Of a stretch of DNA of 64,000 nucleotides, positions 11,967 through 38,215 are shown in pieces (positions within the stretch are counted from its first letter, which is position 1; each line of letters starts with the position of its first letter). A model generated the notes under the pieces. It did not search any database, had not been told where the DNA came from, and worked only from the letters and a program-made list of their open reading frames with translations. This stretch comes from Candidatus Omnitrophota bacterium. Its GTDB lineage: Bacteria; Omnitrophota; Omnitrophia; Omnitrophales; JACROU01. The position numbers were made by a program, and so were the translations under genes. The DNA is taken from positions 16,063 through 80,062 of the forward strand of contig JAJDCD010000022.1 of the NCBI GenBank assembly GCA_029261035.1, written 5' to 3'.

Positions 11967-12419
11967 ATGGAAGAAATTCAAAAAGTTGTTTCTAAACATC
12001 CATTTTTTGAAGGTTTGGATGAATGGTATTTGGAACAACTGGCAAGGTATGGCACGTTCGCAGAATATGCTTCGAATGAATTTTTGATTCGTGAGTGTGG
12101 AGAAGCGGACCAGTTCTTTTTGATTCTAGAAGGAAAAGTCGCTGTGGGTTTTGAGAGTGATGGAGGAAACTTTTCAGCAGTGCAGGAGTTAACAGAGAAG
12201 GACATTTTAGGGTGGTCTTGGCTGATTCCGCCTCACCGGTGGCACTTTGATGCTATGGCTAAGACAGAAGTTAAAGTTATTGTCTTTGATGCGAAATACC
12301 TAAGAACTAAGTGCGAGGAAGATCCTAAATTAGGCTATGAAATGCTTAAGCGATTGACGCACTTCATTACCCAGAGGCTATTAGCAACTCGACTTCAGCT
12401 AGCAACTCCTCCTGTATAG
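11967..12419 (+). CDS. cyclic-nucleotide-binding domain protein (no DNA-binding domain)
   Basis: 150 aa with a cNMP-binding β-roll fold pattern (FFLILEGKVAV…) and no C-terminal HTH. Confidence 0.7.
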   Translation: MEEIQKVVSKHPFFEGLDEWYLEQLARYGTFAEYASNEFLIRECGEADQFFLILEGKVAVGFESDGGNFSAVQELTEKDILGWSWLIPPHRWHFDAMAKTEVKVIVFDAKYLRTKCEEDPKLGYEMLKRLTHFITQRLLATRLQLATPPV

Positions 12420-12485
12420 GATGAAAGAACATGATTTTAATTTCTTATATATAGAAATGGGGGGTTTTTTGCTATACTCCTACCT

Positions 12486-13148
12486 ATGCTTAAAGACATT
12501 CCATTATTCCAAGATTTAACAGCTGATGAAAGAAAGATTCTCGAGACTTGTTTGCATGAGAAGACCTACGAAAAAGGGGAGGTTCTCTTTTTGGCAGGAA
12601 CTATGTGTAAGCGAGTTTTCTTTGTTGCATCTGGAAAAATTAAGCTTTACAGAACCTCTGCTTCTGGAAAAGAACAGGTTTTAGAAGTTCTGGGTGGAGG
12701 TGAAACATGTGCTTGTAATGCTGAAGCTCAAGCCTTTAGTTGTGCTTCTACGGGAGAGGCCCTTATGCCGACAACAGTCTGGTACTTGTCAAAACCAGAT
12801 TATCTCCGCTTAGTACATGAAAATCCTAATATTGCCCGCAAATTGCTTCAAATCTTAACAGATAAGTTATTTAATATTGGGGGTTTAGTTGAAGAAATTT
12901 CTTTGATGAACGTCAAAGAGCGTCTTGTTAAGTTTCTATTAGATATGCTTAAAGATCAGACGAAGGGCGAAGGTAAAGATGAAGTTTTGATATTACCTTT
13001 CACCCGAGAAGAAATAGCTCACCAACTAGGTTCTGCAAGGGAAACGGTAGCGAGAAACCTTCATCAACTGAAGCAAGACAAGCTTATTGATATAAAACCT
13101 CATCAAATCGTTATTCTTGATAAAAATGGATTAGAAAGTCTCTTGTAA
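12486..13148 (+). CDS. Crp/Fnr-family transcriptional regulator (CRP-like recognition helix RETVAR; no FNR Cys cluster)
   Basis: N-terminal cNMP domain and C-terminal HTH …TREEIAHQLGSARETVARNLHQL…. It lies directly upstream of the nar operon. Confidence 0.85.
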   Translation: MLKDIPLFQDLTADERKILETCLHEKTYEKGEVLFLAGTMCKRVFFVASGKIKLYRTSASGKEQVLEVLGGGETCACNAEAQAFSCASTGEALMPTTVWYLSKPDYLRLVHENPNIARKLLQILTDKLFNIGGLVEEISLMNVKERLVKFLLDMLKDQTKGEGKDEVLILPFTREEIAHQLGSARETVARNLHQLKQDKLIDIKPHQIVILDKNGLESLL

Positions 13149-13247
13149 CTCTACTTATTTATCTTCTGTTTTTCATCTCATTTCATTGAAAATCCTACAA
13201 ATACGACAATTTCTGCCTAAAACTTAAAAATAGTTAATTTACCTGTG

Positions 13248-13263
13248 TGTGACCCATGTCACA
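13248..13263. promoter_or_regulatory. perfect CRP-type box TGTGA-CCCATG-TCACA, class-II position relative to TATACT −10 (13285-13290)
   Basis: Seen in sequence. Centre of the box to the −10 first base is 29.5 bp, the class-II geometry. It sits 82 bp upstream of the narC-like start. Confidence 0.65.
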
Positions 13264-13344
13264 AACAGTTTTAAGTAATGGAGCTATACTATTTTACGAG
13301 TTTGCACTATTCACCCAATTCTTTAGACTCTACGAAGGTGTGTA

Positions 13345-14136
13345 ATGAAGATAAATTTGTTGAGATTCTCAATTTCTCTATTTGTTTTGCTGGTATGTTT
13401 TCATTCTGGTAAGGCATTTGCTATCGATGAAGATATGGTGGATATTGACACGTCGGTTCAACTTTATGTACAGAACTGTTCTGGCTGTCATACCGTTGGA
13501 GGAGGAGAGCTGACGGGCCCTGACTTAAAGGATGTTTCTACATGGTCCCAGAATGATCTATTTCCGGCAGTAAAGAGAATGGAGAAAGAGGTAGGGCCTT
13601 TAACGGATGAAGAAATTCAGAGTTTGGTAGATTTCTTAAAGACTCCAGATGCGGGAGAACGTGTAAAAGCAGAAGAAGCAAAGGTTTCTATGAAGTTCCT
13701 GTCCCAGATGTCACCCGCAGATTCGGAGTTAGGAAAAGAATTATTTTTTGGCGAGAAAAGTTTTGAGAATAAAGGCTTAGCTTGCATTTCCTGCCACGGG
13801 ATATCGGATTACCAAGGAGGCCATTTAGGTCCCGACTTAACAGGGATTTACAAGAAAATGGGTGAAACGGCTTTAGTTTCTGCTAATGAAAAAGCTAGCT
13901 TTAAGATTATGCGAGCGGCTTATAAAGATCACGCTATTACAAAACAAGAAGCGCTCCACTTAACCGAGTTTATGAAAAAAGTTTCTGAAGATCCAAAAAC
14001 GGCATCGGAGTTTAATCCTGTTGTATGGATAGGCTCAGGGTTAGCCTTATTATTTTTTATTGTTCTTTTATTTATACGACCTAAAAGAAAAAAAAGCACA
14101 AGACATAATTTAATTAAAAAAACGAAAAAAGGGTAA
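13345..14136 (+). CDS. membrane-anchored dihaem cytochrome c (NarC-like)
   Basis: Signal peptide, two CxxCH motifs (CSGCH, CISCH), C-terminal TM helix and basic tail. First gene of the nar operon, as in Thermus narCGHJIK. Confidence 0.8.
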   Translation: MKINLLRFSISLFVLLVCFHSGKAFAIDEDMVDIDTSVQLYVQNCSGCHTVGGGELTGPDLKDVSTWSQNDLFPAVKRMEKEVGPLTDEEIQSLVDFLKTPDAGERVKAEEAKVSMKFLSQMSPADSELGKELFFGEKSFENKGLACISCHGISDYQGGHLGPDLTGIYKKMGETALVSANEKASFKIMRAAYKDHAITKQEALHLTEFMKKVSEDPKTASEFNPVVWIGSGLALLFFIVLLFIRPKRKKSTRHNLIKKTKKG

Positions 14137-14139
14137 ATC

Positions 14140-17100
14140 ATGAGTTGGATAAAAGATATTTTTTCACCTAAAGAAAGATCCTGGGAAGATTTTTATCGCA
14201 ATCGTTGGGCTTATGACAAGATTGTTCGGAGTACTCATGGTGTAAACTGCACCGGATCTTGTAGTTGGAATATTCATGTAAAGCAGGGGATTGTTACGTG
14301 GGAAATGCAAGCTTTGGACTACCCTCAAATTGATAAACAAATTCCTCCTTACGAACCTCGAGGATGTCAGAGAGGGATTTCTTACTCTTGGTATATCTAT
14401 AGCCCTTTAAGAATTAAGTATCCATTAGTGAGAGGGGTTCTTTTTGATTTGTGGAGAGAAGCTAAAAGAAAATATCCAACGGATCCTGTCAAAGCCTGGG
14501 AATCCATTGTAACGAATGAAAAGTCTAGAAAAGAATACCAACAAGCTCGAGGCAAGGGAGGTTTTAGAAGAGTTTCTTGGGATGAAGTCAGTGAGATTAT
14601 GGCTGCAGCTAATCTTTATACAGTGAAAAAATATGGGCCAGACCGATTGGTTGGATTTTCTCCAATTCCGGCGATGTCTATGATTAGTTATGCCGCAGGA
14701 GCTCGTTTTATGCAGCTTATGGGTGGTGTGGCTATGTCTTTTTATGATTGGTATTGTGATTTACCCCCTGCTTCTCCAGAAGTTTGGGGTGAGCAGACCG
14801 ACGTGGCTGAAAGTGCGGATTGGTATCAATCTAGAATGATCGCTGTTGTGGGATCTAATGTATTGATGACGCGTACGCCCGATGCGCATTACTTAGTCGA
14901 AGTGAGGCATCGTGGAAGTAAAGTTGTTGTTTTTTCTCCAGATTTTAGTCAAACCTCAAAAATTGCTGACGAATGGGTTCCAATTCACCAAGGACAAGAT
15001 GGTGCTTTTTGGCTTGCTGTAGGGCATGTTATTTTGAAAGAGTATTTTGTTGATCAAAAAACGGATTTCTTTTTGGATTATCAAAAGAAGTATACGGATG
15101 GACCTTTTCTTGTGGTTCTAAACAAGGGTGATGACGGAGTTTTTAAAGCGGGGTCTTTTTTAAGAGCTTCTGACTTTAAAGAAACACAAGATGAAGAAAA
15201 TGGAGAATGGAAACTTTTTGTTTGGGATCAAAAAACAAATAAACCGGCTATGCCAACAGGAACTGTAGGACATCGTTGGCAGGAAAAGAAAGGGGAATGG
15301 AATCTTAAAATGGAAGATTCTAAAACAGGAGAAAAACTGGATCCTGTTTTGTTTTTTGAAGGAAAAAATGCGGAGCAGGTTTCTGTTCATATGGACGATT
15401 TCTCTCAAGGGTTTGAAACGCAAAGTTTAGAACGTTCTATGTGTGCTCGGAAAATCAAAACGAAAGATGGGGAAGTGTATGTAACCACTTCTATGGAGCT
15501 GATGTTGGCTCAATATGGTGTTAAAAGATCAGAAAATGCTGAAGGGTTATGGCCAGATAGTTATGAGAATGATCTGGTGTATACGCCTGCTTGGCAAGAA
15601 AAGTTTACAGGCATCAAATCTTCAGTAGTGATTAATTTTGCAAGGGATTGGGCTCAGACGGCTATAGAAAGTGAAGGTCGTTGCAGTATTATTATTGGGG
15701 CTGGCGCAAATCACTGGTATCACAATAATCTGATTTATAGAGCGTGTATTAATGCACTCATCTTTTGTGGATGTGTTGGTAAGAACGGTGGTGGTTGGAA
15801 CCATTATGTAGGGCAAGAAAAACTGGCCCCAATGGCTTCTTGGTCTCCTATTGCATTTGGTACGGATTGGGGCGGTCCTCCTCGGCTTCAAAACTCTCCT
15901 TCATTTCACTATATTCATTCGGATCAATGGCGTTATGAGAAAGCATTTGATGAGGTTTGTGCTGTGAGTGAAAAAGATCATCCTATGACAACAGGACATA
16001 CGGCAGATAAGCAGGCTTTGGCTGTTCGTAACGGTTGGCTTCCATGTTTTCCTCAATTTAATAAAAGTAATTTTGATTTAATTAAAGAAGCTCGAGAGGA
16101 TGGAGCAGACGATCCTGGAAAAATAAAAAATTATGTAGTTAAACAATTAAAAGAGCGTAAGCTTTTATTTTCTATGGAAGATCCAGATAACCCCACGAGC
16201 TTTCCTCGTGTTTGGTACATTTGGCGTGGTAATGCTTTGATGTCTTCTGCTAAGGGGCATGAATATTTTTTAAAACATTATTTAGGAACACATTCCAATG
16301 CGATTTCTGAAGAAGTGGCGAAAGAAGATATTAAAGAGGTTGTTTGGCATGACAAGGTAGAGCTTGGAAAAATGGATTTAGTTGTGGATTTAAATTATCG
16401 TATGGATTCCTCTGCACTTTACTCCGATATTGTATTGCCGGCAGCCACTTATTATGAAAAAGATGATTTAAACTCTACGGACATGCATTCTTTTATCCAT
16501 CCTTTACAAGCGGCGGTTCAGCCTTGTTGGGAATCTAAAAGCGACTGGGCTATTTTTCGAGATTTAGCAAAAGCAACTTCTGAAATGTCGGAACAATATT
16601 TTTCAGAACCTGTTGAGGATATTGTTGTAACTCCTTTACTTCATGATACGCCACAGGAAATCACACAGCCCACCGTGAAAGATTGGGCTAAGGGAGAGTG
16701 TGAACCTATTCCGGGAAAAACAATGCCTAATATTCAAGTTGTTCAGCGGCATTATCCTGATGTGTATAAGAAATTTATTTCTTTAGGGCCTAACTATCGA
16801 AATAAGGGGTTGTCAGCTCATGGGTTGAGTTATATGGCAGATGATGAATATGATCGCTTTTGTGAAGAAGAGCCCGTAGAAAAGTGGGATGGAAAGGTCT
16901 ACCCATCTCTTAAAGAAGATAGAGGTGTTTGTGAGATTATTTTAGCTTTTGCTCCAGAAACGAATGGAGAAATGGCTTGTCGCGCTTATGAGGCGGAATC
17001 TAAAAAAACAGGTTTGGATCTCACTCATCTAGCTGAAGACAGCCGTTCCATTAAATATAATTTTAACGATTTAATCGCTTCTCCTAAGAGGGTATTGACG

Positions 17101-17775
17101 ACACCTTATTGGACAGGGGTAACACGAGACAATCGAACGTATAGTGCCTTTTGTCAGAATATAGAACAGTTGATTCCATGGAGAACTTTGACAGGAAGGC
17201 AGCACTTTTATATGGATCATGAGGCGTATCGGGCTTTTGGGGAACATGTTCCTACCTTTAAAATTAGAATGGATGAAAAACAAAGTCGTGATTTGGTTCA
17301 AACAAAAAAAGAACCAGACAGTCTAACTCTAAATTATTTAACTCCACATGGTAAATGGCATATCCATAGTACTTATGGAGACACGCTTCGTATGAAGACG
17401 TTGTCACGAGGAATTGAACCTATATGGTTGAATGATCGAGATGCTGGTTTAGTGGGTGTTTGTGATAATGATTGGGTCGAGGTGACGAATGATCACGGGT
17501 CTGTTGTTACGAGAGCGTGTGTGAGCGCTCGAATTCCAAGAGGTATTTGTTTTATTTATCATGCAGTGGAAAGAACGGTTGGAGTTCCTAAATCACCGTC
17601 GCGTAATTTTAAACGAGCAGGAGGACATAACAGTTTAACTCGAGCTCGATTGAAGCCTTTGTTTATGATTGGGGGATATGCTCAATTTTCATACTTTTTT
17701 AACTATTGGGGTCCTCAAGGAGTTAATAGAGATACTTTTATAAAAATACGCAAACTAGGCAAATTGGTCTGGTAA
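14140..17775 (+). CDS. narG: respiratory nitrate reductase alpha subunit NarG (cytoplasmic nNar type; no Tat signal)
   Basis: 1211 aa. N-terminal HGVNCTGSCSWNIHVKQG [4Fe-4S]/His motif. Molybdopterin oxidoreductase. Confidence 0.95.
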   Translation: MSWIKDIFSPKERSWEDFYRNRWAYDKIVRSTHGVNCTGSCSWNIHVKQGIVTWEMQALDYPQIDKQIPPYEPRGCQRGISYSWYIYSPLRIKYPLVRGVLFDLWREAKRKYPTDPVKAWESIVTNEKSRKEYQQARGKGGFRRVSWDEVSEIMAAANLYTVKKYGPDRLVGFSPIPAMSMISYAAGARFMQLMGGVAMSFYDWYCDLPPASPEVWGEQTDVAESADWYQSRMIAVVGSNVLMTRTPDAHYLVEVRHRGSKVVVFSPDFSQTSKIADEWVPIHQGQDGAFWLAVGHVILKEYFVDQKTDFFLDYQKKYTDGPFLVVLNKGDDGVFKAGSFLRASDFKETQDEENGEWKLFVWDQKTNKPAMPTGTVGHRWQEKKGEWNLKMEDSKTGEKLDPVLFFEGKNAEQVSVHMDDFSQGFETQSLERSMCARKIKTKDGEVYVTTSMELMLAQYGVKRSENAEGLWPDSYENDLVYTPAWQEKFTGIKSSVVINFARDWAQTAIESEGRCSIIIGAGANHWYHNNLIYRACINALIFCGCVGKNGGGWNHYVGQEKLAPMASWSPIAFGTDWGGPPRLQNSPSFHYIHSDQWRYEKAFDEVCAVSEKDHPMTTGHTADKQALAVRNGWLPCFPQFNKSNFDLIKEAREDGADDPGKIKNYVVKQLKERKLLFSMEDPDNPTSFPRVWYIWRGNALMSSAKGHEYFLKHYLGTHSNAISEEVAKEDIKEVVWHDKVELGKMDLVVDLNYRMDSSALYSDIVLPAATYYEKDDLNSTDMHSFIHPLQAAVQPCWESKSDWAIFRDLAKATSEMSEQYFSEPVEDIVVTPLLHDTPQEITQPTVKDWAKGECEPIPGKTMPNIQVVQRHYPDVYKKFISLGPNYRNKGLSAHGLSYMADDEYDRFCEEEPVEKWDGKVYPSLKEDRGVCEIILAFAPETNGEMACRAYEAESKKTGLDLTHLAEDSRSIKYNFNDLIASPKRVLTTPYWTGVTRDNRTYSAFCQNIEQLIPWRTLTGRQHFYMDHEAYRAFGEHVPTFKIRMDEKQSRDLVQTKKEPDSLTLNYLTPHGKWHIHSTYGDTLRMKTLSRGIEPIWLNDRDAGLVGVCDNDWVEVTNDHGSVVTRACVSARIPRGICFIYHAVERTVGVPKSPSRNFKRAGGHNSLTRARLKPLFMIGGYAQFSYFFNYWGPQGVNRDTFIKIRKLGKLVW

Positions 17776-17813
17776 ATCGAAGAAATATTTTTACATAACA
17801 AAGGAAAAACATA

Positions 17814-19310
17814 ATGGATGTAAGAGCTCAAACAGCAATGGTATTTCATTTGGATAAATGTATTGGATGCCATACCTGTAGTGTGGCATGTAAGAACATT
17901 TGGACTGATCGCCCAGGTGCAGAATATATGTGGTGGAATAATGTAGAAACAAAACCTGGAACGGGTTACCCCACGCTTTGGGAAGATCAGGTTAATTATA
18001 AAGGTGGGTGGGAAGTTACAGACAAGAGAGAACTAAAACTTAAAAGTCAAAACAAGAAAAATTTTTGGCTGAAGATGTTCTATAACCCTAACCAACCTAC
18101 ATTGGATGATTATTACGAACCATGGACTTATGAATATAAGCATTTAACAGATGCTAAGCTAGGAGATGATCAGCCTACAGCTAGACCGATTTCTCAAATC
18201 ACTGGGGAGCCTATTGATATTGAAGCGGGGCCCAACTGGGATGATGATTTATCCGGTTCTCCTATCTATGCCGAAAATGATCCTAATTTAAGCCAATTGT
18301 CAGAAGATGAGAAAAGAATGCTTTTTGAAATCGAAAGTATTTCAATGATGTACTTACCCCGCATTTGTAATCACTGTGCAAACCCAAGTTGTGTAGCTGC
18401 TTGTCCTTCTGGGGCATTGTATAAGCGAGGGGAAGATGGGATTGTACTTGTGAATCAAGATGTTTGTCGTGGTTGGAGAAATTGTGTAGCCGCATGCCCA
18501 TATAAGAAAATTTATTTTAATTGGAAAACAGGAAAATCTGAAAAATGTATTTTGTGTTACCCCCGAATAGAAACGGGGCAGCCTCCAGCATGTTTTCATA
18601 GTTGTGTTGGGAGAATCCGTTATATGGGTGTTTTGCTTTATGATGCAGATCGTGTTGAAGAAGCGATGAAAGCGCCTTTAAATTCTCTTGTGGAGTCGCA
18701 AAGAAGTGTTTTGTTAGATCCTTTTGACCCTGAAGTTATTAAAGGAGCTAAAGAAAACAATATTAGTCCTGAAATGATTGACTCTGCACAGAATTCACCT
18801 GTATGGAATTATGTGATGAAGTGGAAATTAGCCTTACCTCTTCACCCGGAGTTTCGCACACTTCCTATGTTGTACTACGTTCCACCGTTACTTCCTGTAA
18901 TGGGGAAAATAGGGGACGGTATTTACGAGCATAAAACGGAAGACTTTTTTGCTTCAATAGAACAAGCGAGGCTTCCTATGAAGTTTTTGGCTTCTCTTTT
19001 CAGTGCGGGGAACTTAAATGAAATTAGAAGTGTCATGAAAAAACTTTTAGCGATACGACATTTCAAAAGAGCGGAATCTAGAAAAGAATTGGGCTCTGAC
19101 AAGATAAGAAAGATTCTTCATGAATCAAGAATGGACCCAGAAGAAGCAGAAGCAATCTATCAATTAACTTCTTGCCCTGGACCTTACGAGCGATTTGTTT
19201 TACCGCCTCTTCAAAGAGAAGAAGCGATGGAGGGTGGGGAAGAATGCCCTGAGTCTTGTAAAGGGAGTTGTGGCTTAGGAGATGTTCAAACACCAAAGCG
19301 AGGGTTATAA
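17814..19310 (+). CDS. narH: respiratory nitrate reductase beta subunit NarH
   Basis: Four Cys clusters (CIGCHTCSVAC…, CNHCANPSCVAACP…). Confidence 0.95.
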   Translation: MDVRAQTAMVFHLDKCIGCHTCSVACKNIWTDRPGAEYMWWNNVETKPGTGYPTLWEDQVNYKGGWEVTDKRELKLKSQNKKNFWLKMFYNPNQPTLDDYYEPWTYEYKHLTDAKLGDDQPTARPISQITGEPIDIEAGPNWDDDLSGSPIYAENDPNLSQLSEDEKRMLFEIESISMMYLPRICNHCANPSCVAACPSGALYKRGEDGIVLVNQDVCRGWRNCVAACPYKKIYFNWKTGKSEKCILCYPRIETGQPPACFHSCVGRIRYMGVLLYDADRVEEAMKAPLNSLVESQRSVLLDPFDPEVIKGAKENNISPEMIDSAQNSPVWNYVMKWKLALPLHPEFRTLPMLYYVPPLLPVMGKIGDGIYEHKTEDFFASIEQARLPMKFLASLFSAGNLNEIRSVMKKLLAIRHFKRAESRKELGSDKIRKILHESRMDPEEAEAIYQLTSCPGPYERFVLPPLQREEAMEGGEECPESCKGSCGLGDVQTPKRGL

Positions 19311-19313
19311 GTC

Positions 19314-19841
19314 ATGAGCGAAAAAAATGATTATATACAACTAGCAAAGCTTTTGGATTATCCAGATAAAAATTATATCAGTCAGCTAAGAACCATCATT
19401 AATTACTTTCAAGAAAAAAGCCCCGCAACTTCTCGTTTCTTAGAGGACTTTTTATCTCAACTTCTAGATCTGTCTTTGGAGCAAATACAAGAGATACAGA
19501 CAGCAACTTTTGATGTCAATCCTATCTGTGTGCCTTATGTGAGTGTGCATTTGTTTGGAGAAGAAAGTTTTAAGCGTTCTCAGCTTATGGCGGGTTTGGC
19601 GATGGCATATGCAGATGAGGAGTTTGATTCAGGTAAAGAATTAGCAGATCATTTAAGAAATATTCTTAATTTTGCACCTTACTTTAAAGCCGAAGAATGG
19701 GATGAGCTTGTTAGTTTTGTTTTGTTGGATTCAGTTGAAAAGATGCAAGGTAAACTAAAACAGCCGGATCATGTTTTCTTACCCTTATTGAATGCAATTT
19801 TAGAAAGACTGCGTCAAGATTCGCTTATAGGAGTTCTTTAA
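19314..19841 (+). CDS. narJ: nitrate reductase assembly chaperone NarJ
   Basis: 175 aa in the NarJ/TorD family, in its canonical position. Confidence 0.85.
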   Translation: MSEKNDYIQLAKLLDYPDKNYISQLRTIINYFQEKSPATSRFLEDFLSQLLDLSLEQIQEIQTATFDVNPICVPYVSVHLFGEESFKRSQLMAGLAMAYADEEFDSGKELADHLRNILNFAPYFKAEEWDELVSFVLLDSVEKMQGKLKQPDHVFLPLLNAILERLRQDSLIGVL

Positions 19842-21154: not shown

Positions 21155-21157
21155 TCT

Positions 21158-22264: not shown

Positions 22265-22266
22265 TA

Positions 22267-22905: not shown

Positions 22906-22917
22906 GGAGTTATCGTC

Positions 22918-24405: not shown

Positions 24406-24432
24406 CAACGAGTAAAGTTTAAGGAGTGGAAG

Positions 24433-28490: not shown

Positions 28491-28510
28491 AATGTGATCT
28501 AGATCACATT
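28491..28510. promoter_or_regulatory. 20-bp perfect palindrome AATGTGATCTAGATCACATT (CRP-type box), class-II spacing to TACAAT −10 (28530-28535)
   Basis: Seen in sequence. Centre to −10 is 29.5 bp; it lies upstream of nrdD. Confidence 0.65.
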
Positions 28511-30798: not shown

Positions 30799-31513
30799 TG
30801 TTTCTGTAGACAAAAATTGGTGTCGGCTTCCGGTGGGTGGGATTACCCCATTTACCACTATCGATTTCCCTAATCGTCTAGCAGCAGTAATTTATACCCA
30901 TGGTTGTTCTTGGAGTTGTCGGTATTGCCATAATGCAGAGTTGAGAGGCTCTTCGGATCACCCTTTCGATTTTGAGAAATTAATTCAATTTCTTGAAGAC
31001 AGAAAAGGGAAGTTGGATGGAGTTGTTTTCTCTGGAGGAGAACCTAGTATTCATGATTCTTTATCCACTTGGATGCGTTATGCAAAAACGCTTGGGTATG
31101 AAGTTGGGTTGCACACTAGCGGAATGTTTCCAGAGCGCTTAAAGAATTTGTTGCCTTTGTGTGATTGGGTGGGAATGGATATTAAAGCGCCTTTTAACAA
31201 TTATGATAAAGTTACGCTTGTTGAAGAAAGTGGCATTGAAGCGAAAAAAAGTGCGCGTTTACTTTTGGATAGTGGTGTAGATTATGAATTTAGAACAACA
31301 GTTCATCCAAATCTTCTTTCAGAGAATGATATTAAAAATATAGCTAGAGAGCTTGAGGAGATGGGTGCGAAACGTTTTGTAATTCAAGCTTTTCAGCCCG
31401 AAGGATGTGAGGATGAAGAGTTGAGCCAAGTGAAGATGCCGGTACCTATTATATCGGAAGAGCTTTATCATTTTTTAGATTGTAAGTTTGATTTTGTGGA
31501 TGTAAGGCAGTAG
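30755..31513 (+). CDS. nrdG: anaerobic RNR activating protein NrdG (radical SAM)
   Basis: CSWSCRYCHN motif. Its start is uncertain and it overlaps the small ORF. Confidence 0.85.
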   Translation: MRGNALANLVEKRSSVSVDKNWCRLPVGGITPFTTIDFPNRLAAVIYTHGCSWSCRYCHNAELRGSSDHPFDFEKLIQFLEDRKGKLDGVVFSGGEPSIHDSLSTWMRYAKTLGYEVGLHTSGMFPERLKNLLPLCDWVGMDIKAPFNNYDKVTLVEESGIEAKKSARLLLDSGVDYEFRTTVHPNLLSENDIKNIARELEEMGAKRFVIQAFQPEGCEDEELSQVKMPVPIISEELYHFLDCKFDFVDVRQ

Positions 31514-31681
31514 TTTTTAATTTTAAAAATAAAAATCTCCGATTTTAGTGACCTAAGACCCCTCAGGGTTATGGAAGCTAAAGCGTTTAGGGTTATTTGA
31601 GAAATCATTTAGCCTTCCGAAGATTTAAAGATCAGCCCAGTTAGGGATGATTTCTAAATCCGAATTGAGAAGGAGAAGGAA

Positions 31682-32698
31682 ATGAACCATCAAGACTATC
31701 TTGTTGACTCATACGGTCGACGACTATCTTATCTTAGACTTTCATTAACCGAATTGTGTAATTTTCGTTGCATCTATTGCATGCCTGAAGAAGGTGTGCC
31801 TGTGGTGCCTCCCTCAAAATATCTAACCCGAGATGAAATCTTACGTTTTACTAAAATTATAGGCCGCTTAGGTGTTCACCGTATTCGATTAACCGGTGGA
31901 GAGCCTTTGTTGCGGGAAGATATTCTGGATATTGTCCGAGCTCTTAAAAGTATTGAGACCGTAAAAGAGCTTTCTTTAACAACCAACGCGAGCCGTTTGG
32001 GACCTCTCGTAAATTCTCTTAAAGAGGCGGGACTAGACCGGATTAATATTAGTTTGGATAGTCTAGACCCAGAGAGGTTTAAAGAAATCACCTTAAAGGA
32101 TGTTTATTATGAAGTGTTAGATGCTACTTTTTCTGCGCTTCGAGCAGGATTTCCAGTAAAACTCAACATGGTTGTTTTGAAAGGAATTAGCGATGAGGAG
32201 ATTCTAGAGTTTGCCAAGATGGCTTATGACTTTCCATTGGATGTTCGTTTCTTAGAGTTTATGCCTTTGTGTGGAACAGGTTGGAAACCAGAGTGGGTTC
32301 TTCCTATTGAACATGTTCGTCAAGTGATTCATCAGCATTTTGAGCTGACAGAGGAAAAGAATCGAAAGGACGATGTTGCTCAGAATTATATGATTCACGG
32401 AGGAAAGGGCAAGATTGGTTTAATTGCTTCTCTAACAGAATCTTTTTGTGACCAATGTTCTCGAATCCGTTTGAGTGCAGATGGAAGTCTTTACCCGTGC
32501 CTTTTTTCAGACAAAGAGGTGTCTGTTAAAGATTTGCTTCGCAGTCATGCATCCGATGAAGCAATTATTGAAGCGATTCGTTATGCGGCTTCGATTAAAC
32601 CTAAGGGCAATTGGTTTTATGAAAACAAATTTAATGAAAAAGAGTCTCCTATTGAACAATTACAGTCTCATCCAATGATTCGTTCTATAGGCGGATAA
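31682..32698 (+). CDS. moaA: GTP 3',8-cyclase MoaA
   Basis: CNFRCIYCMP radical-SAM motif plus a C-terminal second cluster. Confidence 0.93.
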   Translation: MNHQDYLVDSYGRRLSYLRLSLTELCNFRCIYCMPEEGVPVVPPSKYLTRDEILRFTKIIGRLGVHRIRLTGGEPLLREDILDIVRALKSIETVKELSLTTNASRLGPLVNSLKEAGLDRINISLDSLDPERFKEITLKDVYYEVLDATFSALRAGFPVKLNMVVLKGISDEEILEFAKMAYDFPLDVRFLEFMPLCGTGWKPEWVLPIEHVRQVIHQHFELTEEKNRKDDVAQNYMIHGGKGKIGLIASLTESFCDQCSRIRLSADGSLYPCLFSDKEVSVKDLLRSHASDEAIIEAIRYAASIKPKGNWFYENKFNEKESPIEQLQSHPMIRSIGG

Positions 32699-32711: not shown

Positions 32712-33614
32712 ATGAAGTCTGTTACAGAAAAAATAAATACGTTACGTATTGCAACAGCGACAAGTACTTTGGTAGCAAAACCAGAAACAATTGTGCGAAT
32801 GAAAGAGAATGATTTGCCAAAGAAAGATGTGTTGATTGTCGCTAGGGTTGCTGCTGTAAATGCGGTGAAGAAAACGCCAGATTTAATTCCTTACTGTCAT
32901 CCATTGCCAGTAGATTCAGTGAAGGTAGAGTTTGAAGTTAAAAGGGATAGCGTGATTGCAACAGTAACCGTTGAAGCGATTTGGAAGACAGGGGTAGAGA
33001 TAGAAGCTTTGGCCGGAGCTCAAATGGCAACGTTGACGATCTATGATATGTTGAAGCCTGTAGATAAAGAGATGGAAATAACGACGACTAAACTACTCAG
33101 TAAAAAAGGTGGAAAAACATCTTTTAATGAAAAATTGCCGGCTGGTTTTAAAGCAGCTGTAATCGTTAGTTCGGATGGTACTGCAAGTGGAAAGCGAGAG
33201 GATAAGTCAGGTAAAATAATCAAAGAACGTTTAGAGAGTTTTGGGATAGAACCTGCTTATGAGATTCTTCCAGATGAAAAAGAGTTGATACAGGCAAAGA
33301 TTAAAGAGCTTTGTGATGAGGGAGTTCTTCTTATTTTAACAACTGGAGGCACTGGATTGGGGCCTCGAGATGTAACTGTTGAAGCAACTCAAGAAATGAT
33401 TGATCGAGAAATTCCAGGAATCGTAGAAGCGGCACGGAGTTATGGTCAACAGAGAACGCCCTATGCGATGCTTTCCAGAGGATTGGCAGGACAAAGAGGG
33501 AATACGATTATCATTAATTTACCGGGTTCTTCAAATGGTGTTCGGGAAAGCTTGAATGCCATTTTTCCAGCGATTTTACATTCTTATAAAATGATGAAAG
33601 GCTTAGGTCATTAA
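32712..33614 (+). CDS. moaC: MoaC (cPMP synthase) fused to MogA/MoaB-type MoCF domain
   Basis: N-terminal MoaC fold and C-terminal …LILTTGGTGLGPRDVT…. Confidence 0.8.
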   Translation: MKSVTEKINTLRIATATSTLVAKPETIVRMKENDLPKKDVLIVARVAAVNAVKKTPDLIPYCHPLPVDSVKVEFEVKRDSVIATVTVEAIWKTGVEIEALAGAQMATLTIYDMLKPVDKEMEITTTKLLSKKGGKTSFNEKLPAGFKAAVIVSSDGTASGKREDKSGKIIKERLESFGIEPAYEILPDEKELIQAKIKELCDEGVLLILTTGGTGLGPRDVTVEATQEMIDREIPGIVEAARSYGQQRTPYAMLSRGLAGQRGNTIIINLPGSSNGVRESLNAIFPAILHSYKMMKGLGH

Positions 33615-34345
33615 TGTTACCGGTTTATTTTTTTCTTATTGCTTTGTTTTATTCCATGGTTGGGTTTGGAGGAGGGTCTTCTTATATTGCGCTTCTCGCG
33701 TTGATGGGAATGCCTTACCAAACGATACCGCCTATTGCTTTAGTTTGTAATCTGATTGTAGTCGTGGGTGGCTGTTGGCATTTTTATCGAGCGGGTTATT
33801 TAAAATTAAAATTAATATTACCCTTTGTTTTACTCTCTATTCCGATGGCTTATTTAGGGGGTAGGATTCCAATTTCAAATACAGCTTTTTGTTTTGTTTT
33901 AGGGTTTTCTCTTTTGTGTGTTGCTATTCGGATGTTTGTGCCAGATAAATGGTTTGAAAATCCAAAAGAAATTTCATGGAAAGCAGCTTGGTTTCTAGGG
34001 GTTCCCATGGGAGGGTTTTTAGGTTTTTTGGCTGGATTGGTCGGTATTGGCGGGGGAATTTTATTGAGCCCACTTCTTTTGTTTTTGCGTTGGGGGCATG
34101 TTAAAGAGGTTGCTGCTACAGCCAGCTTTTTTATTTTAGTCAACTCTGCTTCAGGGTTGCTTGGGCAAATGCAAAAAGGGGGAGCTGATTTTAGTTTGCT
34201 TCTGCCTTTAGCTGTTGCTGTATTTTTAGGTGGGCAAATAGGTTCTCGTTTAGGGGCTTATCAACTGCCAAAATTACGTTTACAACAACTATTAGCTCTA
34301 CTGGTACTTTATATTTCAGTTCGATTGATAGGAATAGCCATATGA
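33614..34345 (+). CDS. TauE/SafE (DUF81) family anion exporter
   Basis: About 8 TM helices with G-rich repeats. Confidence 0.7.
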   Translation: MLPVYFFLIALFYSMVGFGGGSSYIALLALMGMPYQTIPPIALVCNLIVVVGGCWHFYRAGYLKLKLILPFVLLSIPMAYLGGRIPISNTAFCFVLGFSLLCVAIRMFVPDKWFENPKEISWKAAWFLGVPMGGFLGFLAGLVGIGGGILLSPLLLFLRWGHVKEVAATASFFILVNSASGLLGQMQKGGADFSLLLPLAVAVFLGGQIGSRLGAYQLPKLRLQQLLALLVLYISVRLIGIAI

Positions 34346-35562
34346 TTACTGTTAAACAAGCAAAACAATTAATACAAAAGAATGTACCTCAACCTTTGAG
34401 AAAAATAGTTTCACTGAAGGAAGCGTTAGGTTTGGTATTAGCAAAGGACATAAGCTCTCCATTTCCATTACCTTTATATGATAATTCTGCAATGGATGGT
34501 TTTGTTCTAAATAGTAAAAACACATTAACAGCGACGAAGTTAGCGCCTATTAAATTAAAGCTCGGATTACCTATTAAGGCAGGGGATACTAAAAGAAGAA
34601 TGCTAGATAAGTTTTCTGCGACACCTATTATGACAGGCGCTGTTATCCCGGGTGGAGCAGATACCGTGTTGATGAAAGAATATGCTGAAATAAAAGAGGG
34701 TTACTTAATTTTTAAAGCTCCTTATAAAAATAACAGACATATTCGTTATCGTGGAGAAGAGGTTGAAAAAGGAGAGGTACTTCTTAGTAAGAATGAAGTT
34801 ATTCATTCAGGAACCATGGGTGTGTTAGCTTCTATAGGGAAGGGGCAAGTTCCTATTTTTAAAGCGCCACAAATTTCGTTGATGGCAACAGGCACAGAGC
34901 TTGTATCTCCAGGGAAACCGCTACGTTTTGGTAAAATTTATGACAGTAATTCAACGATGATTCGGTCTGCCTTAAATCAAATGGGCATTCACTCTGTTGA
35001 TGTTACTCGAAGCAGTGACCGATTGGAGTTGTTAAATCAGCGGGTTAAACAAGCGCTTAATCAATCGGATATGTTAATTTTGATGGGGGGCGTTTCTGTA
35101 GGAGACTACGACTTTGTTAAAGATGTTTTAAATCATTTGGGAGTTAAGACGATTTTTTGGAAAGTGAGTCAAAAACCAGGAAAGCCTATTTATTTTGGAA
35201 AAAAGGGAAAGAAACTTATTTTTGGACTTCCGGGTAACCCAGCAAGTGTTTTTACCTGCTTTTATGAGTATGTGTATCCAGCAATTCGACAATGGATGGG
35301 ATTCTCTAAAACAGAATTACCCAAGAAAAAACTTTCATTAGGAACAGAAGTTAAAGGAGATCCATTTAAGACGATCTTTCTAAAAGGAAGGATTGTTGAA
35401 AATAAGGTTCAGCTCTTGTCGAAGCAAGGTTCTCATATGTTATCTTCTTTGGCTGATGCGCACTGTTTTATTGTGTTGCCTCCAAGGCAAAGAGTTTATA
35501 AAAAAAATGAGATTGTGGAAGTACATCAATTTTTTTCTGACGAGAGAGGAGTGTTACTATGA
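34342..35562 (+). CDS. moeA: molybdopterin molybdotransferase MoeA
   Basis: MoeA N/linker and MoCF domains (…GGVSVGDYDFVKDVL…). Confidence 0.88.
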   Translation: MITVKQAKQLIQKNVPQPLRKIVSLKEALGLVLAKDISSPFPLPLYDNSAMDGFVLNSKNTLTATKLAPIKLKLGLPIKAGDTKRRMLDKFSATPIMTGAVIPGGADTVLMKEYAEIKEGYLIFKAPYKNNRHIRYRGEEVEKGEVLLSKNEVIHSGTMGVLASIGKGQVPIFKAPQISLMATGTELVSPGKPLRFGKIYDSNSTMIRSALNQMGIHSVDVTRSSDRLELLNQRVKQALNQSDMLILMGGVSVGDYDFVKDVLNHLGVKTIFWKVSQKPGKPIYFGKKGKKLIFGLPGNPASVFTCFYEYVYPAIRQWMGFSKTELPKKKLSLGTEVKGDPFKTIFLKGRIVENKVQLLSKQGSHMLSSLADAHCFIVLPPRQRVYKKNEIVEVHQFFSDERGVLL

Positions 35563-35795
35563 CGGTTAAAGTTTTGTTTTTTGCAGGCCTCAAAGATTAT
35601 TTTGGAGAGTCCGAAAAGCAAGTGGAGATTAAGGAAAGCGTTACGGTAATTGATTTATGGAAGCGGCTATCTTCTTCGATAAACTCTGTTTCTGTTCCTC
35701 TTTTATTTGCTGTAAACGAAAATTACGTGAAGGGGAGTTATGTTTTAAAAGATAAAGATACCGTGGCTTTTATGACTCCGGTTGCGGGAGGATAG
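35559..35795 (+). CDS. moaD: molybdopterin synthase sulfur-carrier MoaD
   Basis: 78 aa with a ubiquitin-like fold ending in GG. Confidence 0.85.
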   Translation: MTVKVLFFAGLKDYFGESEKQVEIKESVTVIDLWKRLSSSINSVSVPLLFAVNENYVKGSYVLKDKDTVAFMTPVAGG

Positions 35796-35797
35796 AA

Positions 35798-36226
35798 ATG
35801 ATTACAGAACAGAGTATTGATTTAAATACATTTTTAGCTCATCAACCTGACACCTCTTGCGGTGGGGTGGCAACATTTACGGGCATTGTTCGAAACCATC
35901 ATAAGGGACGATCTGTTGAAAAGCTATACTATGAATGTTATACCTCGATGGCAGAGAAAGAGATGGGTCGGATTACTCAAGAAGTGAAGTTGGAATTTGG
36001 GGTTCATGAACTGAGGGTTCTTCACCGAGTTGGATGGCTGGATGTTGGTGAAGCGGCTATTGCTATTTGGGTGAGTGCGGCACATCGCAAAGAAGCTTTT
36101 AGTGCTTGCAGGGCAACGATTGATCGAATTAAAGCACGTGTACCTATTTGGAAGAAAGAAATTTATGTCGACGGAACAAGTGATTGGGTTCTGTGCACCC
36201 ATCAAGAGGTGGAAGTTTTATCATGA
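35798..36226 (+). CDS. moaE: molybdopterin synthase catalytic subunit MoaE
   Basis: 142 aa in the MoaE family. Confidence 0.85.
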   Translation: MITEQSIDLNTFLAHQPDTSCGGVATFTGIVRNHHKGRSVEKLYYECYTSMAEKEMGRITQEVKLEFGVHELRVLHRVGWLDVGEAAIAIWVSAAHRKEAFSACRATIDRIKARVPIWKKEIYVDGTSDWVLCTHQEVEVLS

Positions 36227-36789
36227 AGATCCAAGGGGTTGTTTTGGCGGGGGGGAGAAGTACTCGATTTGGTTCTGATAAGGCCCATGCAAAAATTGGA
36301 AGTATATCTTTAGCTCAAAAAGCGATAAACTTACTTAAAGATATAAATTTAAATCCTTTACTGGTTTCTAATAACGATCAAGACTTTTCGTATTTATCTT
36401 GTCCTGTGGTTGTGGATCAAATACCGAACCAAGGACCTTTGGGTGGGTTGCAAACCGCGTTAACCTTAACAGATGCAGATGCTGTTCTCGTTTTGGTTTG
36501 TGATATGCCCGGAGTTACAAACGAACTGTTGAACCACTTGTTAGAGGAGCATCATTTCTCTCAATTATTGACACACTTTGCTTTTGGGAGAGAGATGGAA
36601 CAGCCTTTTCCGGGTATCTATGATAAAAAACTATTGGATTTAGTTAATCAACAATTGAATCAAGGGAGGCGTTCTATGAAAGCGCTTTCAGAACAAGTGC
36701 AAAGTAAAAAAATAGTTCAGTTAGATCAAAATTTTGATTGTTTTGTTAATGTGAATACTCAGGAAGATTGGAATAAGAAAAATGAGTAA
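36223..36789 (+). CDS. mobA: molybdenum cofactor guanylyltransferase MobA
   Basis: GVVLAGGRSTRFGSDKA. ATGA overlap with moaE; start moved from 36184. Confidence 0.85.
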   Translation: MKIQGVVLAGGRSTRFGSDKAHAKIGSISLAQKAINLLKDINLNPLLVSNNDQDFSYLSCPVVVDQIPNQGPLGGLQTALTLTDADAVLVLVCDMPGVTNELLNHLLEEHHFSQLLTHFAFGREMEQPFPGIYDKKLLDLVNQQLNQGRRSMKALSEQVQSKKIVQLDQNFDCFVNVNTQEDWNKKNE

Positions 36790-38215
36790 GCCATTTCGTA
36801 TTACGATTGTAGGCAGCGGTGTTTCGGGTCTTGCGGCAGCTTACCGTTTAAAGGAGTTATCTCAAGAGAGAGGGATAGATATTCAAATCCAAGTTTTGGA
36901 GGCTTCTCCTGAGGTGGGTCCGGCAATTATGACCACACATCGCGAAGGTTTTTTGTTGGAGTCTGGACCAGACTCTTTTATTACAGAGAAACCATGGGCA
37001 ATGGACTTATGCAAACGTTTGGGTATCGAGACTGAGGTGATTAGTACTCAGAATCAATTCAGAAAAAGCTATGTTGTACGAAACAAGGCTCTACTGCCTG
37101 TTCCGGAAGGTTTTTATCTAATGGCTCCGGTGAAAATCAGTTCTTTTCTATCCTCTAAAATCTTTAGTTTGATGGGAAAAACACGAATGGTTTTGGAGTA
37201 TTTGATTCCAAAAAAGAAAAGTGATAAGGAAGAAAGTTTAACGCAATTTATTCATCGAAGGTTTGGAAAAGAAGCCTTAGAGCGTATTGTGCAACCTATG
37301 ATTTCTGGGGTTTATGCGGCAGATCCGGACCAGTTAAGTTTAAGAGCTACATTTCCTAAGTTCTTAGAAATGGAAAAAAAGTATGGAAGTGTGATTAGAG
37401 GGTTGAGAAAGAAAAGAAGAGAAGAAAGTAGCGAAAAAGCAAGCGGCGCCCGATATAGTTTATTCGCTTCTTTTAAAGGTGGAATGAGAACCTTGGTGGA
37501 TGCTCTAGTTAAAGCGTTGGGTTCAATGATGATTCGTACAGAGTGCTGCGTTGAAAAAATTGAAAAGAAAACAGGCTCCACATCTTGGCAGGTGTATCTA
37601 AAAGGTGGAGAAGTTTTAGATACAGATTATGTTGTTTTAGCTTTACCGGCAAATCGATGTTCGGAGATTTTAAAAAGTGTCGATCTTTCATTGGTGGATG
37701 AACTATCTGAATTTTCGTTTGGTTCTGTGGCGACTGTTAACCTGGCTTATGCACGAGAAGATATTAAACATTCTTTAGATGGTTTTGGGTTTGTGGTTCC
37801 CGCGGCAGAAAATATTCCTCTGGTTGGATGTACTTTTTCAAACGTCAAATATGAGGGAAGAGCTCCAAAAGGATTTGCGTTATTGAGAGCTTTTGTGGGA
37901 GGTGTTCAGAAACCAGATTGTCTTAATATGAGTGATGAGGCCTTAGAATCTCTAGCCCATGAAGAACTGTCTAAGCTTTTAGGAATTAAAAAGAAACCCC
38001 ATTTATCACAAATAGGACGTTATGATAAGGTAATGCCTCATTACTACTTAGGACATTTGGAGAGGGTGGAAAGAATAGAAAAGAGGGTTAGCCGCCACGA
38101 AGGATTAAGTCTAGTAGGCAACAGCTATCGAGGCGTTGGAATTCCAGATGCCATCCACAGCGGAGAACAAGCCGCAGAAGAAATTATAAAAAAATTAGCA
38201 ATAAGCATCCAATAA
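36782..38215 (+). CDS. hemY: protoporphyrinogen oxidase (HemY-type, FAD)
   Basis: N-terminal GSGVSGLAAAY dinucleotide fold, 477 aa, amine-oxidase family. Confidence 0.8.
   Translation: MSKPFRITIVGSGVSGLAAAYRLKELSQERGIDIQIQVLEASPEVGPAIMTTHREGFLLESGPDSFITEKPWAMDLCKRLGIETEVISTQNQFRKSYVVRNKALLPVPEGFYLMAPVKISSFLSSKIFSLMGKTRMVLEYLIPKKKSDKEESLTQFIHRRFGKEALERIVQPMISGVYAADPDQLSLRATFPKFLEMEKKYGSVIRGLRKKRREESSEKASGARYSLFASFKGGMRTLVDALVKALGSMMIRTECCVEKIEKKTGSTSWQVYLKGGEVLDTDYVVLALPANRCSEILKSVDLSLVDELSEFSFGSVATVNLAYAREDIKHSLDGFGFVVPAAENIPLVGCTFSNVKYEGRAPKGFALLRAFVGGVQKPDCLNMSDEALESLAHEELSKLLGIKKKPHLSQIGRYDKVMPHYYLGHLERVERIEKRVSRHEGLSLVGNSYRGVGIPDAIHSGEQAAEEIIKKLAISIQ

Follow-up and report, generated by a model that had tools for sequence, protein, structure and literature searches.

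The nitrate-respiration locus

The window analyzed here is a 64,000-nucleotide stretch of DNA from a Candidatus Omnitrophota bacterium (GenBank assembly GCA_029261035.1, contig JAJDCD010000022.1, positions 16,063 to 80,062 of the forward strand), and the coordinates given below are counted from its first nucleotide. Between positions 11967 and 38215 it carries a block of genes whose identities support a role in anaerobic nitrate respiration, as an earlier note on this DNA had proposed: a Crp/Fnr-family regulator, a nitrate reductase (Nar) operon, a class III ribonucleotide reductase, genes of molybdenum cofactor (Moco) synthesis, and hemY. Within the nar operon, the gene for the membrane subunit NarI continues in frame into a Rieske iron–sulfur domain (NarI::Rieske), and genes for a cytochrome b and a cytochrome c follow it; a module of the cytochrome bc type (the bc module) is thus joined to the nitrate reductase by a single polypeptide.

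All of the genes that the note had listed were recovered in place, contiguous and on the plus strand, by open reading frame (ORF) calls and family searches. Every ORF of at least 90 amino acids (aa) within the block could be given a metabolic or regulatory assignment, and all lie on the plus strand, excepting those nested antisense inside other genes. The conserved block begins somewhat further upstream than had been supposed, with a 53-aa ORF at 11782–11943. The description of the block as self-contained, with a complete Moco pathway, was overstated: because a MoeB/ThiF-type activator of MoaD, a molybdate transporter, cytochrome c maturation genes, and twin-arginine translocation (Tat) genes are missing from it, the block is neither self-contained nor complete for its cofactor.

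The block would comprise five adjacent transcription units, apparently accreted side by side. The first would hold the small ORF, a protein with a cyclic nucleotide monophosphate (cNMP)-binding domain, and the Crp/Fnr regulator; the second, a ten-gene nar operon running from narC to narK2, with no intergenic gap above 38 nt; the third, a radical S-adenosylmethionine (radical-SAM) protein and an outer-membrane anion porin; the fourth, nrdD, a glycyl-radical peptide, and nrdG; and the fifth, a Moco riboswitch, the genes from moaA to mobA, and hemY. From moaA to hemY no gap exceeds 13 nt and five junctions overlap by 1–8 nt; the ATGA overlap reported earlier for moaE/mobA (ATG at 36223) is genuine, as are the further overlaps of 1–8 nt. 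Intergenic terminator-like hairpins occur only after the porin gene and after hemY.

Much of the comparison below draws on one close relative found through the fused NarI, whose protein is 78% identical and lies on a 2.17-Mb metagenome contig (JGI 3300032138) and also on a 178-kb contig of the European Nucleotide Archive. Its loci are labeled L083 and L099; L098 is a locus of Hydrogenedentes, and L102 is a contig with a 67%-identical MoaA.

The features of the nar operon are as follows.

13345–14136 (+): NarC, membrane-anchored periplasmic diheme cytochrome c; two CxxCH motifs, an N-terminal signal-like segment, and a C-terminal transmembrane (TM) segment
14140–17775 (+): NarG catalytic subunit (TIGR01580, 1547 bits; cut-off 1084)
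17814–19310 (+): NarH iron–sulfur subunit (TIGR01660, 633 bits; cut-off 524)
19314–19841 (+): NarJ-like assembly chaperone (TIGR00684, 41 bits, under the cut-off of 59; assignment backed by position and by PF02613 on the orthologue)
19841–21154 (+): NarI, Tat motif, sixth TM helix, long helix, and bc-type Rieske [2Fe-2S] domain in one chain of 437 aa (PF02665, 197 bits; PF00355)
21158–22264 (+): cytochrome b, with a b6-like half and a subunit-IV-like half in a single chain (PF00033/PF13631/PF00032)
22267–22905 (+): monoheme c-type cytochrome of no named family; one CxxCH motif, a signal-like N-terminus, and a C-terminal TM anchor
22918–24405 (+): NarK-type nitrate/nitrite transporter 1 of the major facilitator superfamily (TIGR00886, 181 bits)
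24433–26028 (+): NarK/NarU-type nitrate/nitrite transporter 2 (NF011608, 319 bits; TIGR00886, 268 bits)

NarG is 59% identical to that of Thermus, and NarC is 29% identical to Thermus NarC (BLASTP, E 1e-15, over 231 aa). The N-terminus of NarG has neither a twin-arginine (RR) signal nor a hydrophobic segment; since NarG lacks a Tat signal, the NarGH dimer is expected to be cytoplasmic.

The NarI–Rieske fusion

The N-terminal part of the fused protein aligns with residues 2–214 of Escherichia coli NarI and retains all four heme ligands: H54, H64, H182, and H200 correspond to H56, H66, H187, and H205 of E. coli and are invariant in 60 homologues. Also invariant across these 60 are R237–R238, which lie inside an RRxF(V/L)K Tat consensus preceding the sixth TM helix, and both Rieske boxes (C347-T-H-L-G-C352 and C366-P-C-H369), which contain the pair of disulfide-forming cysteines characteristic of Rieske proteins of the bc type. 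Hydropathy indicates six membrane segments, the sixth at 241–259. The AlphaFold2 model (mean predicted local distance difference test score, pLDDT, of 83) shows a five-helix NarI bundle, with a TM-score of 0.79 against E. coli NarI, then a sixth helix (236–266), a long helix (273–302), and a C-terminal Rieske beta domain. The C-terminus of E. coli NarI is established as cytoplasmic. Because NarI ends in the cytoplasm and the sixth helix crosses the membrane, the Rieske domain would lie on the periplasmic side, where a bc complex needs it. The Tat motif within the chain agrees with the dual Sec/Tat insertion route demonstrated for actinobacterial Rieske proteins (PMC5449189).

The lysine that marks the quinol site of E. 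coli NarI, Lys86, aligns to Phe83 here. Thermus NarI lacks this lysine as well, and the Lys86 test therefore says nothing on quinol oxidation by NarI.

With the linker and Rieske half as query, 16 cluster representatives at E <= 1e-30 were found among 1.84 billion proteins, comprising both fused (about 423–441 aa) and stand-alone (about 224–229 aa) forms. Since these representatives mix the two, the Rieske half appears to belong to a compact nar-associated clade whose members are often, though not always, fused. When the whole protein served as query, 695 proteins matched at E <= 1e-5, and the best 120 of the 695 all have both domains. The source-given names among these matches read "nitrate reductase subunit gamma," and genome surveys can miss the module because its proteins carry that name. 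No description of a NarI–Rieske fusion was found in a full-text literature search that left most subscription journals outside its reach, so an earlier mention is possible.

The cytochrome bc genes and possible electron routes

The closest solved structure to the cytochrome b is cytochrome b6 (E 1e-44, first half), with four histidines aligned. The PEWY quinol-oxidation motif (PEWYF) is intact in the translation, and a tyrosine stands at the position of the heme-ci cysteine of b6 (Cys35); the covalent heme ci feature of b6f and Firmicute-type complexes is accordingly absent. Orthologues of the monoheme cytochrome c, 43–48% identical, occupy the equivalent position in three other loci.

We infer from sequence that the nar and bc products, eight redox proteins in all, form one Nar–bc assembly, and two principal routes for electrons through it can be weighed. 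Under the first, the Rieske/cytochrome b module would serve as the quinol oxidase of the machine, and electrons would pass from the Rieske center to the cytochrome c, to NarC, to the hemes of NarI, and on through NarH to NarG. Q-cycle coupling would then be added to transmembrane electron transfer via NarI, yielding approximately two charges per electron as against one. Textbook potentials give an estimate of about 0.5 V between menaquinol and nitrate, sufficient for such a route. Under the second, NarI would oxidize quinol itself, and the Rieske protein, cytochrome b, cytochrome c, and NarC would form a branch feeding periplasmic acceptors (nitrite, NO, and N2O reductases, or oxidases), the fusion serving co-assembly and stoichiometry only. 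Several features are consistent with this branched arrangement: the four heme ligands of NarI are all invariant, stand-alone versions of this Rieske protein exist, a multiheme cytochrome gene lies just downstream in the Hydrogenedentes locus, and in Thermus, when complex III is repressed, NarC is proposed to take electrons from Nar and relay them to the reductases of nitrite and NO (PMC7694296).

The Q-cycle route is slightly favored as the mechanism, in our tentative judgment, and falls somewhat short of an even chance. It is preferred because the module belongs exclusively to the nar operon, because the conserved core holds no gene for a periplasmic reductase (a point that also counts against the branch), and because bc complexes have been proposed to be dedicated to, or required by, haloarchaeal Nar and Streptomyces Nar1. 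Further, a general-purpose bc complex is not expected within a nar operon under a common operator, and the dedicated bc modules in the nar clusters of haloarchaea are considered to supply Nar itself (PMC3509893). The branched arrangement we regard as somewhat improbable, only slightly less likely than the Q-cycle route. A stronger version of the Q-cycle proposal, in which a hard-wired Nar–bc supercomplex with a Q cycle feeds a cytoplasmic Nar, translocates about twice the charge per electron that NarGHI does, and represents the usual Nar in Omnitrophota, Melainabacteria, Hydrogenedentes, and Sumerlaeota, is doubtful.

NarG-type and NxrA-type proteins are closely related, and the complex could in principle work in reverse as a nitrite oxidoreductase, with the bc module used for reverse electron flow, as in the Nitrobacter-type enzyme, itself a relative of cytoplasmic Nar. 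A very similar cluster, including a NarC homologue, acts as nitrite oxidoreductase in Nitrobacter (PMC7694296). The setting here is anaerobic: the operator-like palindrome described below also precedes the genes of the class III ribonucleotide reductase, an oxygen-sensitive enzyme, and the block encodes both a Crp/Fnr regulator and a pair of NarK transporters. NarG scores far over the cut-off of the NarG equivalog model. Because of this anaerobic context, the reverse reading is given low weight and is exceedingly improbable.

In the Hydrogenedentes locus, the multiheme c-type cytochrome gene (L098 17978–19417) stands after a porin gene, downstream of the nar–bc core. This cytochrome may reduce nitrite or hydroxylamine in the periplasm, as an enzyme tied to the module in that phylum.

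Regulatory features

The regulator unit and the candidate regulatory sites comprise the following.

11782–11943 (+): conserved 53-aa ORF of no known family, opening the regulator unit; contains VDAGTRKMCLKQI; no Pfam match
11967–12419 (+): 150-aa protein with a cNMP-binding domain and without a DNA-binding domain (PF00027, 49 bits; 72% identical in the relative)
12486–13148 (+): Crp/Fnr-family transcription regulator (PF00027 and HTH_Crp_2)
10514–10527: palindrome GTGATCTAAGTCAC, 33.5 nt upstream of the annotated start of the desaturase gene in the upstream flank
13249–13262: palindrome GTGACCCATGTCAC, centered 89.5 nt upstream of narC (counterpart in the relative at L083:3410)
26033–26046: palindrome GTGATTTGAATCAC, in the gap that separates narK2 from the radical-SAM gene (counterpart at L083:16233)
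28494–28507: palindrome GTGATCTAGATCAC, centered 81.5 nt upstream of nrdD (counterpart at L083:18641)
31525–31648 (+): Moco riboswitch, directly upstream of moaA (RF01055, 37.8 bits; gathering score 36)

The earlier note had spoken of a sensor and a regulator. The regulator is well founded as a member of the Crp/Fnr family; the "sensor" has just a ligand-binding domain of the cNMP type and is a possible sensor partner only. The regulator is 33% identical to the Crp regulator adjoining Thermus nar, shares five cysteines with its counterpart in the relative, and has no N-terminal cysteine cluster of the FNR type. The small ORF that opens the unit has a 47-aa homologue at the equivalent place in the relative, with 80% nucleotide identity.

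The exact palindrome GTGA-N6-TCAC, of the CRP/FNR type (TGTGA-N6-TCACA), occurs four times in the 64 kb, against 0.58 copies expected, and all four copies are intergenic. Those before narC, nrdD, and the radical-SAM gene lie at distances of 81–98 nt from the respective gene. The relative keeps the palindrome at four equivalent places, the first of them upstream of the small ORF opening the regulator unit. To judge from sequence, the palindrome may be the operator of the Crp/Fnr regulator of the first unit. Anoxia or nitrogen oxides would then induce, as one set, the reduction of nitrate, the transport of nitrate and nitrite, and the synthesis of deoxynucleotides without oxygen, and cofactor supply would be under separate control by Moco itself, via the riboswitch. 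The relative's Moco riboswitch likewise lies directly upstream of moaA and scores 56.4 bits (L099 9776–9897).

A classical FNR box, TTGAT-N4-ATCAA, was also considered as the motif. At two mismatches its excess was only slight, and its two intergenic matches in the block read GTGAT-N4-ATCAC; it was replaced by GTGA-N6-TCAC. Separately, the remaining palindrome stands near a gene for an oxygen-dependent fatty-acid desaturase outside the block, and because it lies just upstream of the start of that gene, the desaturase may share the regulator.

Accessory, ribonucleotide reductase, and cofactor genes

The remaining genes of the block are listed here.

26137–26904 (+): radical-SAM protein (PF04055, 34 bits; no NCBIfam family above 24 bits)
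26950–28383 (+): Alginate_export-family outer-membrane beta-barrel (PF13372, 285 bits)
28582–30612 (+): NrdD, class III ribonucleotide reductase large chain, 676 aa, without the glycyl-radical loop (NF006126, 1148 bits; cut-off 548)
30637–30798 (+): NrdD glycyl-radical loop as a separate 53-aa ORF (TRVMGYHRP; Pfam NRDD positions 530–561 of 562, 29.5 bits)
30755–31513 (+): NrdG activase (TIGR02495, 187 bits; cut-off 131)
31682–32698 (+): MoaA (TIGR02666, 347 bits)
32712–33614 (+): MoaC/MoaB (MogA-type) fusion (NF002947, 384 bits)
33614–34345 (+): TauE/SafE-family membrane protein within the moa operon (PF01925, 131 bits; equivalent position in the relative and in L102)
34342–35562 (+): MoeA (NF007960, 336 bits)
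35559–35795 (+): MoaD, with a C-terminal Gly-Gly (TIGR01682, 54.7 bits, under the cut-off of 66)
35798–36226 (+): MoaE (NF007959, 90 bits, and NF011061, 104 bits, each under its cut-off)
36223–36789 (+): MobA, its start placed at the ATG overlapping the stop codon of moaE (NF001457, 123 bits)
36782–38215 (+): HemY-type protoporphyrinogen/coproporphyrinogen oxidase (TIGR00562, 340 bits), overlapping mobA by 8 nt, an adjacency kept in the relative

The radical-SAM protein of the third unit is present, among the compared loci, in the relative only. Its neighbor, the Alginate_export-family barrel, is likely an anion channel for nitrate/nitrite; the Hydrogenedentes locus, too, has a gene of this family after narK.

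The ribonucleotide reductase is split. NrdD covers positions 2–534 of the 562 of the Pfam NRDD model, and the chain stops past the zinc ribbon; the glycyl-radical loop is carried by the ORF that follows, which has its own Shine–Dalgarno sequence, is in the frame of nrdD with two in-frame stops between, and overlaps the start of nrdG. The relative divides NrdD in the same way; a single stop codon intervenes there, and the peptide is almost identical.

At two places in and just after this part of the block, the relative has genes that the window lacks: tatA and a further radical-SAM gene (368 aa), which lie between nrdG and the riboswitch (L099 8403–9782), and a small carbonic-anhydrase-like gene after hemY (L099 16715–17101). 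Because tatA precedes moaA also in the unrelated L102, the adjacency of tatA and moaA may be ancestral and lost in the window.

Chromosomal context and the question of mobility

The earlier note had read the block as a transferable metabolic island, like the nitrate-respiration conjugative element of Thermus and ending at an insertion sequence (IS)-like element, and had named composition and synteny as checks. On composition, the block resembles its flanks in both G+C and tetranucleotides. G+C stays at 36–41% throughout the window and GC skew is steadily positive; per-gene G+C is 0.388 in the block as against 0.377 in the flanks; tetranucleotide profiles of block and flanks correlate at 0.982, and those of the upstream and downstream flanks at 0.974; and in sliding windows neither border of the block appears as a step. 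Features of mobility are likewise lacking: there are no tRNA genes in the 64-kb window, no integrase, relaxase, or type IV secretion/conjugation genes among the ORFs of the block, and no repeats bracketing it in a repeat comparison of the window. The fused NarI is absent from the plasmids in PLSDB, where the matches are unfused NarI, mostly of Ralstonia and Thermus, the best being those of Thermus at 37–38%.

On synteny, the block was found in an equivalent chromosomal context, on both sides, in the relative. Upstream, the relative has an lpdA-like gene, SWIB, Rrf2, sufBCDSU, sufT, a desaturase gene, two small ORFs, kefC, and a pyruvate:ferredoxin oxidoreductase, and then the block; downstream of hemY follow the small carbonic-anhydrase-like gene, a Y1 transposase (minus strand), miaB, yjeF_N, a Rieske ferredoxin (minus strand), and a giant protein. 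Local differences aside, the window keeps this order on both flanks (suf to kefC/desaturase upstream, Y1–miaB–yjeF downstream). Proteins of the block are 38–92% identical between window and relative (mean 72%, 23 genes) and those of the flanks 50–87% (mean 66%, 14 genes; p = 0.11). Because these identities are similar, block and surroundings appear to have diverged together.

The right end of the block deserves separate attention, since the supposed IS-like element lies there.

38279–38875 (−): Y1 (IS200/RAYT-like) transposase gene, 198 aa (PF01797, 50.9 bits, cut-off 23; NF047646, the NCBIfam RAYT family, 68 bits, under the cut-off of 80)
38221–38279 and 38957–39015: 59-nt direct repeats, 83% identical, flanking the Y1 gene, each with a GGGCCCGGGCC hairpin

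A transposase gene is indeed present; it is a single Y1 gene of 198 aa that lies outside the block and is the only gene of a mobility type. The 59-nt repeat has only its two flanking copies in the window, and the left copy doubles as the sole terminator-like hairpin after hemY. Since the Y1 gene has an orthologue in the relative (58% identity) at the equivalent position, it does not mark an insertion or mobility boundary.

For a recently transferable, IS-bounded 26-kb island of the Thermus kind, then, there speak the functionally coherent and co-directional genes, the Y1 gene with its 59-nt repeats, an upstream junction unlike that of the relative, and the homology of the enzyme core to the plasmid-borne Thermus nar cluster. 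That homology is real (NarG 59%, NarC 29%, Crp 33%), and the likeness to the Thermus element holds to this extent; the transferability is not supported. Functional coherence and a nearby transposase gene are no evidence of mobility, and the block is unremarkable when considered for horizontal transfer. Given a composition indistinguishable from that of the flanks, the lack of tRNA, integrase, and conjugation genes and of bracketing repeats, the orthologous and equally placed transposase gene, both flanks kept with similar divergence of block and flanks, and the absence of the fused NarI from PLSDB plasmids, we regard the island as highly improbable. A composition like that of the flanks, together with a locus shared with relatives, is what the earlier note held would speak for vertical inheritance, and both were found as far as relatives reach. 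The block is instead quite probably a chromosomal, vertically inherited nitrate-respiration operon cluster of an Omnitrophota-like bacterium, not a mobile element.

Several points weigh against this reading. G+C at third codon positions (GC3) differs between block and flanks, 0.316 as against 0.295 (p = 0.012), a difference of two points. The upstream junction differs as well, the relative having a pyruvate:ferredoxin oxidoreductase between kefC and the block and its desaturase gene placed elsewhere. Only one close relative is at hand; the next SufB-bearing contigs (81% SufB identity) lack synteny on either side of the suf operon, and because synteny is lost in them no empty-site comparison at greater depth could be made. 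Scans for sigma-70 promoters and terminators gave counts at or below chance, and the operon boundaries, the pairing of regulator and operator, and the physical Nar–bc complex all derive from sequence. Finally, the Rieske half also stands alone (about 225 aa) in some organisms.

A metagenome scan with HemY gave a best match of 47% and did not recover the relative, because HemY is merely 52% identical between the window and the relative.

Distribution and origin

A seven-gene core (narC, narG, narH, narJ, narI::Rieske, cytochrome b, and cytochrome c) occurs also in genomes of Melainabacteria, Hydrogenedentes, and Sumerlaeaceae (Sumerlaeota) and on one further contig, with identities of 68–70% for NarG, 63–69% for cytochrome b, and 43–48% for cytochrome c. 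At these four loci narK genes are usual, and nrdDG, moa, and hemY never occur. The contig L102, for its part, has tatA, moaA, moaC/B, tauE, moeA, moaD, moaE, and mobA in equal order, adjoining a different molybdoenzyme and nitrite reductase genes. Judged by these sequence comparisons, the block is composite in origin.

One may ask whether the nar–bc core alone (13345–26028) was acquired laterally by this lineage, or passed between phyla, long ago and was then ameliorated, with native nrd and moa genes joining later, a history compatible with vertical inheritance of the cluster in its present state. The equal order of the seven genes in Omnitrophota-like bacteria, Melainabacteria, Hydrogenedentes, and Sumerlaeota, at 53–70% identity, would fit such an acquisition, as would the fact that nrd and moa are unlinked to nar in the other phyla. 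The named matches also differ: only 1 of 12 for NarI::Rieske is from Omnitrophota, unlike SufB, for which 9 of 11 named matches (75–80% identity) are Omnitrophica/Omnitrophota, and MoaA, for which 5 of 8 are; the few named sequences bias this tally. Against these stand the lack of any compositional trace and a neighbor-joining tree of 120 fused NarI proteins, without bootstrap or other support values, whose groups approximately follow the phyla; in it the only sequence named Omnitrophica shares a clade of 13 leaves with the window and the relative. Ancient acquisition of the core is therefore conceivable though unlikely, and nothing points to its recent transfer. The named SufB and MoaA matches point to an Omnitrophota-like host. 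MiaB found nothing above 44% identity among species-representative genomes, so that this collection would lack a close representative of the host lineage.

Flanking genes and dispersed repeats

Some further features of the flanks may be recorded. An 87-aa ORF resembling the SWIB/MDM2 domain (906–1169) has the lpdA-like gene on one side and the Rrf2/suf operon on the other, and its orthologue in the relative matches PF02201. A giant protein of 3324 aa (41709–51683) combines an ARMT1-like damage-control phosphatase domain with several helix-turn-helix motifs and with AprA-like domains, N-terminal and methyltransferase; in the relative its orthologue was called at 5353 aa. A repetitive protein of 1591 aa, rich in Thr, Gly, Asn, and Ala (59161–63936, minus strand), has no Pfam match and the most deviant local tetranucleotides of the window (r 0.85); it may be surface or adhesin-like.

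Short intergenic repeat families of 33–52 nt, 71–91% identical, lie at 7483–7515, 53399–53431, and 57055–57087; at 4176–4214 and 5625–5663; and at 7540–7591 and 52094–52145. They stand upstream of the housekeeping genes sufT, an aminotransferase gene, rph, sufD, sufS, and lipA, and may represent a dispersed regulatory element or one resembling repetitive extragenic palindromes.

Comparison with known nitrate reductases and implications

By sequence, the enzyme core belongs with the Thermus-type NarCGHJI, to which a bc module has been added. Thermus thermophilus narCGHJIK(T) shares the membrane-anchored diheme narC 5′ of narG, a NarI that is 37–38% identical, an adjoining Crp regulator, and NarK-type transporters downstream; Lys86 of E. 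coli is missing from NarI in both, and the two NarI proteins have a conserved Glu in common. An interaction between NarC and NarI has been described in Thermus (PMC7694296). However, NarI stands alone there (about 225 aa), whereas here it carries the Rieske fusion (437 aa) and is accompanied by cytochrome b and c genes; the Nrc NADH dehydrogenase and DnrS/DrpAB of the Thermus system do not occur here; and Thermus nar lies on a transferable megaplasmid region, in contrast to the chromosomal cluster described here with its native composition and conserved flanks.

E. coli NarGHJI shares NarG, NarH, NarJ, and a five-helix diheme NarI with four heme ligands, but has no NarC, Rieske extension, or bc module, and its Lys86 is not conserved here. 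Haloarchaeal nar clusters (NarB/NarC) also include genes for a Rieske protein and a cytochrome b, whose proposed role is to supply Nar (PMC3509893). Their NarGH, however, faces outside and there is no NarI, whereas here NarGH is predicted to be cytoplasmic and NarI is retained and fused to the Rieske domain, with two c-type cytochromes. Nar1 of Streptomyces coelicolor offers a further parallel, being a cytoplasmic Nar that needs a Rieske/cytochrome b complex (the bcc-aa3 supercomplex) in vivo and co-purifies with it (PMC7931247). In Streptomyces the complexes are separately encoded and also serve oxygen respiration; here the link lies in one operon and in one polypeptide. The actinobacterial dual Sec/Tat Rieske proteins of the Sco2149 type resemble the fused protein in their N-terminal helices, internal twin-arginine motif, last helix, and exported cofactor domain, but their N-terminal helices are heme-free and are not NarI; the NarI–Rieske architecture is not among the families listed in the passages of that work consulted (PMC5449189).

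Electron donation to bacterial cytoplasmic Nar has been described as bypassing the Rieske/cytochrome b complex (PMC3509893). In the locus described here the bc module sits in the nar operon, covalently joined to NarI, and is conserved over several phyla. Testable predictions on regulation and enzymology follow from the shared palindrome, the riboswitch, and the division of NrdD. If the bc module does feed Nar, the energy yield of nitrate respiration would be above that assumed in these widespread, mostly uncultured bacteria, and the energetics of Nar would gain an added case.

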